Assembly: GCF_003790525.1 (NCBI RefSeq)
Contig: NZ_CP033635.1
DNA from: Escherichia coli
GTDB taxonomy: Bacteria > Pseudomonadota > Gammaproteobacteria > Enterobacterales > Enterobacteriaceae
Reading direction: 5' to 3' (one strand)
Length of the DNA: 64,000 bases
The notes beneath the pieces were generated by a model. It searched no databases. It saw nothing but the letters and a program-made list of their open reading frames with translations, and was not told the origin of the DNA. The translations under genes were made by a program, and so were the position numbers. How positions within the stretch are numbered: position 1 is the first letter of the stretch; each line of letters starts with the position of its first letter. Below, in pieces: positions 8,911 to 8,947 of this stretch.

Positions 8911-8947
8911 CTGGGTGTATATACAGTTATGCTGTGAGTATATACAG
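8911..8947 (-). promoter_or_regulatory. two tandem SOS (LexA) boxes in the lexA promoter
   Basis: ctgggtgtatatacag (8911-8926) and ctgtgagtatatacag (8932-8947) both match CTGT-N8-ACAG, 9-45 bp upstream of the lexA start codon. Confidence 0.85.

Follow-up and report, generated by a model that had tools for sequence, protein, structure and literature searches.

The lexA operator-promoter of Escherichia coli K-12, with its operators I and II (Brent and Ptashne 1981, Little et al. 1981, both as cited in PMC7440846), is the closest described system to the region analysed here and represents the same locus. From the -35 element through both LexA boxes to the ATG, the two sequences are identical, and they encode the same LexA. 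The gene order dgkA-lexA-dinF-yjbJ-zur is shared with K-12 as well, and nothing functional differs, the strain background here being SMS-3-5-like. The double LexA operator of lexA-dinF has already been described in every detail. Our analysis therefore recovers an operator that was among the earliest to be characterised and serves mainly as a positive control for recognising regulatory sites; minor additions are a probable mis-annotation of the K-12 dinF start, a recurrent structured spacer between lexA and dinF and a quantified conservation of the double operator.

Promoters with more than one LexA box are also known from recN, with three boxes, and from the colicin genes, with two overlapping boxes (PMC7440846). 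In these cases, as at lexA, closely packed sites overlap the core promoter. In contrast to recN and the colicin genes, the gene regulated at lexA is that of the repressor itself, which creates a negative feedback loop. The two boxes of E. coli lexA do not overlap, whereas in the Erwiniaceae variants with a spacing of 19-20 bp they abut or overlap by 1 bp.

For the downstream gene, the closest parallel is recA-recX, where transcription reads through a hairpin terminator downstream of recA and so reaches recX. We infer the same arrangement here for dinF. In both pairs, the second gene lacks an operator and is SOS-inducible only through co-transcription with the first (PMC6590174 for recA-recX). 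The two systems differ in that DinF is a membrane transporter and not a modulator of the product of the upstream gene, and in that we found no quantification of read-through at the lexA-dinF hairpin in the literature.

Two LexA boxes in the lexA promoter

The window, i.e. the whole stretch of 64,000 nucleotides (64 kb) that was analysed, carries an E. coli locus whose 3-kb lexA region is 100% identical to that of strain SMS-3-5. Of 5426 complete E. coli genomes, 5425 contain this 3-kb region, and in 5347 of these the 117-bp operator region has an identity of at least 99%. The RefSeq annotation places plsB, dgkA, lexA, dinF, yjbJ and zur at the locus, as in K-12, and dgkA, lexA and dinF are all encoded on the minus strand, the latter two directly adjacent without an intervening gene. 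The lexA start codon occupies 8902..8900. The encoded LexA is identical to the K-12 protein and contains the A84-G85 cleavage site as well as S119 and K156. DinF is a MATE transporter according to its match to the equivalog family NF007690. The dgkA product had no NCBIfam match. The coordinates of all features are collected in the table.

Features of the lexA-dinF locus, listed in the direction of lexA transcription (positions refer to the window)
Feature	Position	Strand	Basis or remark
dgkA	9380..9012	minus	identity from RefSeq annotation
-35 hexamer TTCCAA	8960..8965	minus	located by hand; 17-nt spacer to -10
Distal (upstream) LexA box TGCTGTATATACTCACAGCA	8930..8949	minus	19.3 bits, p 1.6e-7, HI 6.4
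-10 hexamer TATACT	8937..8942	minus	embedded in distal box
lexA transcription start, approximate	8929..8930	minus	estimated at 7-8 nt past -10
Proximal (downstream) LexA box AACTGTATATACACCCAGGG	8909..8928	minus	18.2 bits, p 3.4e-7, HI 8.0
Dcm site CCAGG	8910..8914		direct sequence reading; extended CCCAGGG 8915..8909
Shine-Dalgarno region GGGGGCGGA, purine-rich	8903..8911	minus	nearly invariant in 26-genus alignment
lexA CDS, 202 aa, stop codon included	8294..8902	minus	TIGR00498, 289.5 bits; RefSeq annotation
Terminator-like hairpin, 13-bp GC-rich stem, 4-nt loop, then UUGUUUUU	8245..8283	minus	terminator scan
dinF CDS from conserved start, 441 aa	6896..8221	minus	NF007690, 910 bits; PGAP start

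On the plus strand, positions 8911-8926 read CTGGGTGTATATACAG, positions 8927-8931 TTATG and positions 8932-8947 CTGTGAGTATATACAG, and the pair of 16-mers ends 8 bp upstream of the lexA ATG. Direct reading of the sequence bears out the positions that a sequence-only reading had given for the two boxes, the gap of 5 bp between the 16-mers and their placement immediately upstream of lexA. That reading had described both boxes as CTGT-N8-ACAG. The description is exact for 8932-8947, where the core of the distal box runs from 8947 to 8932, and is off by one mismatch for the proximal box, whose core at 8926..8911 is CTGT-N8-CCAG. The strand also had to be corrected to minus for lexA, dinF and both boxes. 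The coding strand reads, in order, TTCCAA, a spacer of 17 nt (which extends to the -10 hexamer within the distal box), TGCTGTATATACTCACAGCA, T, AACTGTATATACACCCAGGG, GGCGGA and ATG. Considered as 20-bp sites, the LexA boxes are hence separated by 1 bp, with 21 bp from centre to centre.

A gammaproteobacterial SOS box was defined as a 20-bp imperfect palindrome with the conserved trinucleotides CTG and CAG 10 bp apart and an AT-rich centre. Compared with the consensus TACTG(TA)5CAGTA, both sites conform, having the form CTGT-N8-(A/C)CAG with a TATATAC centre. PMC3009722 Table 4 gives the distal box as the SOS box of lexA, and LexA binding to the proximal 20-mer has been measured by gel shift (PMC9210283).

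Scoring with a LexA position weight matrix (PWM) had been proposed together with the original description of the boxes, and both of them scored high. As the source of the PWM we used the 18 LexA boxes upstream of UV-induced E. coli genes (PMC3009722 Table 4), from which the lexA entry was dropped to avoid circularity. The remaining 17 training sites, with the recovered consensus TACTGTATATATATACAGTA, were converted into a symmetrised 20-bp log-odds matrix that was applied to every position of the window. The training sites themselves span 13.1-28.9 bits, a range that includes both lexA boxes, and the next best site in the window reaches 8.96 bits. Lewis-type heterology indices (HI) calculated from the same 17 sites were likewise low for both boxes (see table) in comparison with the cutoff of 15 for LexA-repressed genes that is quoted in PMC11002266.

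The promoter hexamers were placed by hand and then checked against the published numbering (PMC9210283). Because TTCCAA matches only three of the six positions of the -35 consensus, a consensus promoter scan returned no minus-strand site at the lexA promoter. The position of the -10 hexamer within the distal box agrees with PMC9210283 Fig. 1 and PMC7440846 Fig. 2, in which it lies inside or next to the operators, and five of its six positions are invariant in an alignment of 26 genera. According to PMC9210283, the target cytosines of two Dcm sites are located at +17 and +45. These cytosines correspond to window positions 8913 and 8885, and the start calculated back from them, 8929/8930, agrees with the one estimated from the -10 hexamer. 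With a start at this position, the proximal box would cover about +2 to +21 of the transcript, beginning 1-2 nt past the start and running into the Shine-Dalgarno region, which lies just before the lexA ATG and overlaps the 3' end of the box. Both boxes are thus situated so as to occlude the promoter.

The CCAG arm of the proximal box deviates from ACAG because it is part of the Dcm site CCCAGGG. In more distant genera, CCCAGGG is replaced by AACAGGG, i.e. the CCCAG arm by AACAG, which was also noted in PMC9210283. Methylation of the Dcm site in the proximal box is specific for stationary phase and is partly blocked by LexA; neither the binding of LexA nor lexA expression was affected by it (PMC9210283).

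Almost certainly, the two sites belong to the native operator-promoter by which the minus-strand transcription unit lexA-dinF of E. coli is controlled, as in the textbook explanation, and nothing that we found contradicts this core explanation. The sigma-70 promoter (TTCCAA, 17 nt, TATACT) would be overlapped by two LexA-dimer sites, the proximal one extending over the initial ~20 nt of the mRNA as far as the Shine-Dalgarno sequence. As long as the DNA is undamaged, LexA bound to both boxes would block RNA polymerase and thereby establish negative autoregulation. Upon DNA damage, RecA filaments would stimulate the self-cleavage of LexA at A84-G85, the boxes would become empty and lexA would be transcribed; the ongoing synthesis of LexA would then permit a rapid shut-off once the damage signal ends. 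Transcription from the lexA promoter would also reach dinF, encoding the MATE efflux transporter, by read-through across the hairpin in the spacer.

The sites, their scores, the overlap with the hexamers, the conservation, the gene identities, the intact catalytic residues of LexA and the lack of further LexA-like sites within the unit were established directly in our analysis. For the binding of LexA, the repressive effect of each operator, the start of transcription and the uninterrupted transcript after UV, we rely on the K-12 literature; all binding and expression data pertain to K-12, not to this strain, and the operator sequence is identical in both. In K-12, T-to-C mutations in the half-sites inactivate operators I and II (Kozuch et al. 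2020, PMC7440846). Both operators repress and are equally able to do so, and each is needed for full repression (PMC7440846).

A single base in the dgkA-lexA intergenic region differs from K-12 MG1655. Window position 8997 is T here and A in K-12, E. albertii and another E. coli strain. This is the sole difference from K-12 in that intergenic region, and it is located upstream of all promoter elements.

Conservation of the operator pair and the role of the second box

To quantify the conservation of the double operator, we retrieved 80 Enterobacterales loci with the LexA protein, and not the operator, as query; 79 of them had a complete 5' end. Two sites of at least 12 bits at most 70 bp from the lexA ATG were present in 74 of the 79 loci, with box starts usually at -47 and -26 relative to the ATG. 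The proximal box is located at -26 in nearly all loci. In 62 of the 74 loci the box centres are 21 bp apart; 4 others have a distance of 20 bp, and the remaining 8 one of 19 bp.

In the alignment of intergenic regions from 26 genera, the distal core CTGTATATACTCACAG is invariant at 15 of 16 positions. Further conserved blocks are GGTT at the 5' edge of the -35, with no or hardly any variation among the genera, the proximal CTGTATA-A/T-AC...CAGG and GGGGGCGGAATG. The sequence upstream of the -35 edge is not conserved, and the boxes are the main conserved blocks between the genes.

Several loci depart from the usual pair. A single strong box is kept in Arsenophonus nasoniae (L082) and in one MAG (L041), and the distal box is degenerate, at 8.7-9.0 bits, in two Photorhabdus (L062, L065) and in Candidatus Pantoea persica (L078). 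Yersinia thracica (L027) has an extra LexA-like box, CGCTGTTGATGTAAACAGTG, with 14.9 bits at -112 from the lexA ATG, upstream of the usual pair, and Y. artesiana (L026) has a 9.0-bit version of it at the same position.

The conservation of the pair in 74 of 79 loci sharpens a question already raised in the literature, namely why there are two boxes at lexA. One answer would be that the boxes act as one cooperative unit, in which LexA dimers bound 21 bp apart on the same face of the helix touch each other and sharpen the autoregulatory switch, instead of serving as two operators with independent and additive effects. This has been proposed repeatedly in the older literature, as far as it is cited by PMC7440846, and would fit the spacing of 21 bp, or two helical turns, in 62 of the 74 two-box loci. 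The Hill slopes of about -2.4 to -2.6 from in vitro repression, which have wide confidence intervals, point in the same direction (PMC9210283). However, PMC7440846 reports no evidence of cooperativity between the dimers, and the wild-type double operator and a matched promoter with a single operator gave the same induction, kinetics, dynamic range and fitness. Moreover, the 12 loci with a spacing of 19-20 bp, mostly from Erwiniaceae, have an altered helical phase. Taken together, we consider a cooperative unit possible, yet doubtful.

A still less probable answer is that the second box is kept by selection for something beyond extra repression strength. Candidate roles, to which the same low probability applies jointly, would be the control of noise or robustness, the binding of a second factor and the protection of the embedded Dcm site. 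PMC7440846 states that what the double operator is for "remains unclear". The -10 hexamer is encoded within the distal box, and the 5' leader and the Shine-Dalgarno sequence within the proximal one, so that a selected role of the second box and a simple dual constraint are inseparable in our data.

The lexA-dinF spacer and co-transcription of dinF

The distance between lexA and dinF depends on the start codon that is chosen for dinF. The 18 bp given in the sequence-only reading apply to the longest ORF, starting from ATG 8275, which is also the start in the K-12 annotation (459 aa). The PGAP/RefSeq start is ATG 8221 (441 aa), 72 bp past the lexA stop codon. The 18 codons added by a start at 8275 are not conserved: the alignment to the family model NF007690 leaves out the start of the long ORF and begins at its residue 19, a C-to-A change creates a TAA within the extension in the E. 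coli locus L004, and in E. albertii (L003) there is no start codon at the position of the 8275 ATG, which in the window sits in the 5' arm of a hairpin stem. In most of the 50 loci with a linked dinF, the alignment shows an ATG at the first position of the 441-aa form. Judged from these comparisons, dinF most likely starts at 8221, and the K-12 annotation is probably 18 codons too long. A spacing of 72 bp weakens one argument for an operon but not the operon itself.

The spacer contains the terminator-like hairpin listed in the table, which folds with -24.1 kcal/mol (z = -5.75); none of 200 shuffled sequences folded as well. Spacer structure in the relatives was judged by z-scores of the minimum free energy (MFE) of the whole spacer. 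The median among dinF-linked loci is z = -2.6, with 35 of 49 spacers below -2 and none above 0, and the sequences of these structured spacers are unrelated between genera. The spacers of Citrobacter (L005-L008) are 121-131 bp long and contain REP-like palindromes of the form GCCGGATAAG...CATCCGGC, which do not correspond to the Escherichia hairpin. We found nothing specific on a lexA-dinF terminator in the publications searched, outside of which lay the 1981 papers by Markham et al. and by Brent and Ptashne.

With a terminator-like hairpin in the ~72-bp spacer, the expression of dinF must depend on read-through. Most simply, the hairpin would be a partial terminator, and transcription that starts at the lexA promoter would pass through it into dinF. 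The recurrence of a structured spacer across genera suggests that the ratio of LexA to DinF expression may be set by partial termination.

The opposite view would be that the boxes control lexA only, that the hairpin terminates efficiently and that dinF is a separate unit with an unrecognised promoter of its own. The strength of the hairpin at 8283..8245, which is followed by a U-tract and was listed by the terminator scan, the spacer of 72 instead of 18 bp and the loss of linkage between dinF and lexA in 29 of 79 loci would all be compatible with that. Yet dinF is SOS-induced, and no LexA-like site above 1.7 bits is present in 6896..8905, i.e. in lexA, the spacer or dinF. No minus-strand promoter-like match was found between 8902 and 6899, spacer included, by a scan that is weak and misses the real lexA promoter, too; within these scans, dinF has neither a promoter nor a LexA box of its own. 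Krueger, Elledge and Walker are said to have found in 1983 that Tn5 insertions in lexA are polar on dinF, which would likewise argue against a separate unit. In K-12, a tiling array showed a single UV-induced transcript of lexA-dinF that runs without interruption from the start of lexA to slightly beyond dinF (PMC3009722 Fig. 4). A separate dinF unit is therefore very improbable.

Co-transcription with lexA from the shared promoter is also the view of a review that describes dinF as lacking its own operator (PMC6590174). In addition, RNA polymerase occupancy increases across lexA-dinF after methylglyoxal treatment (PMC3739934), and ciprofloxacin raises dinF mRNA (PMC11002266). The autoregulated lexA-dinF operon of the sequence-only reading is hence supported by the gene identities, the PWM scores, the conservation of the boxes in 74 of 79 loci and the K-12 literature.

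The lexA-dinF linkage is limited to a part of the order, and the operon is not universal. A dinF gene follows lexA in 50 of the 79 loci; in the other 29, it was not found within the 2.5-kb flank downstream of lexA. These 29 unlinked loci (L009-L011, L020, L026, L027, L030, L039, L045, L050, L052-L054, L057, L058, L060-L062, L064, L065, L067, L071, L073-L077, L081, L082) include Yersinia, Photorhabdus, Xenorhabdus, Proteus, Providencia, Pectobacterium and Dickeya.

Chance expectation and other sites in the window

The bare core CTGT-N8-ACAG has one exact match in the window compared with 0.59 expected, and 19 matches with one mismatch compared with 18 expected. Because these counts are at the level of chance, the bare core pattern is uninformative by itself, and the 20-bp PWM was used in its place. 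From the exact p-values per position (see table), which were calculated for the base composition of the window, 0.01 and 0.02 sites per window are expected at the scores of the distal and the proximal box, respectively. In 200 simulated windows from a first-order Markov model, the best score averaged 11.7 bits and reached 18.2 bits in one of the 200, whereas the real window contains two sites of at least 18.2 bits that are 21 bp apart.

That the palindromes might be chance CTGT/ACAG matches in an AT-rich intergenic region without regulatory function, as the lack of enrichment of the 8-base core would allow, is excluded for all practical purposes by PWM scores about 10 bits over anything else in 64 kb, by p-values of about 2-3e-7 per position for each of two adjacent sites, by fixed positions that are kept in 74 of 79 loci despite diverging flanks and by published mutagenesis and binding data on the same sequence.

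A candidate third operator at 8990..8971 on the minus strand (CTCTGGTTTATTGTGCAGTT, 7.0 bits, HI 14.1), just upstream of the -35, was ruled out. Chance alone would yield about 7.5 sites of this score per window, and the one at 8990..8971 occurs only in few close relatives and is missing in most genera. It is probably the "operator III" of EcoCyc, a putative upstream operator that was non-functional in PMC7440846.

Elsewhere in the window, a 334-aa AT-rich ORF lies at 4692-5696 on the minus strand; it is annotated in SMS-3-5 as a member of the DUF2713 family, gave no NCBIfam match and occupies a position for which the K-12 annotation has just the short yjbL. Otherwise, the window consists of ordinary E. 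coli sequence, with an rRNA operon including tRNA-Glu on the minus strand, isrC, the lysine riboswitch, STnc430 and two naRNA4 elements (REP-type) at 55415-60913, 30498-30694, 28455-28603, 16622-16692 and 49680-49757.
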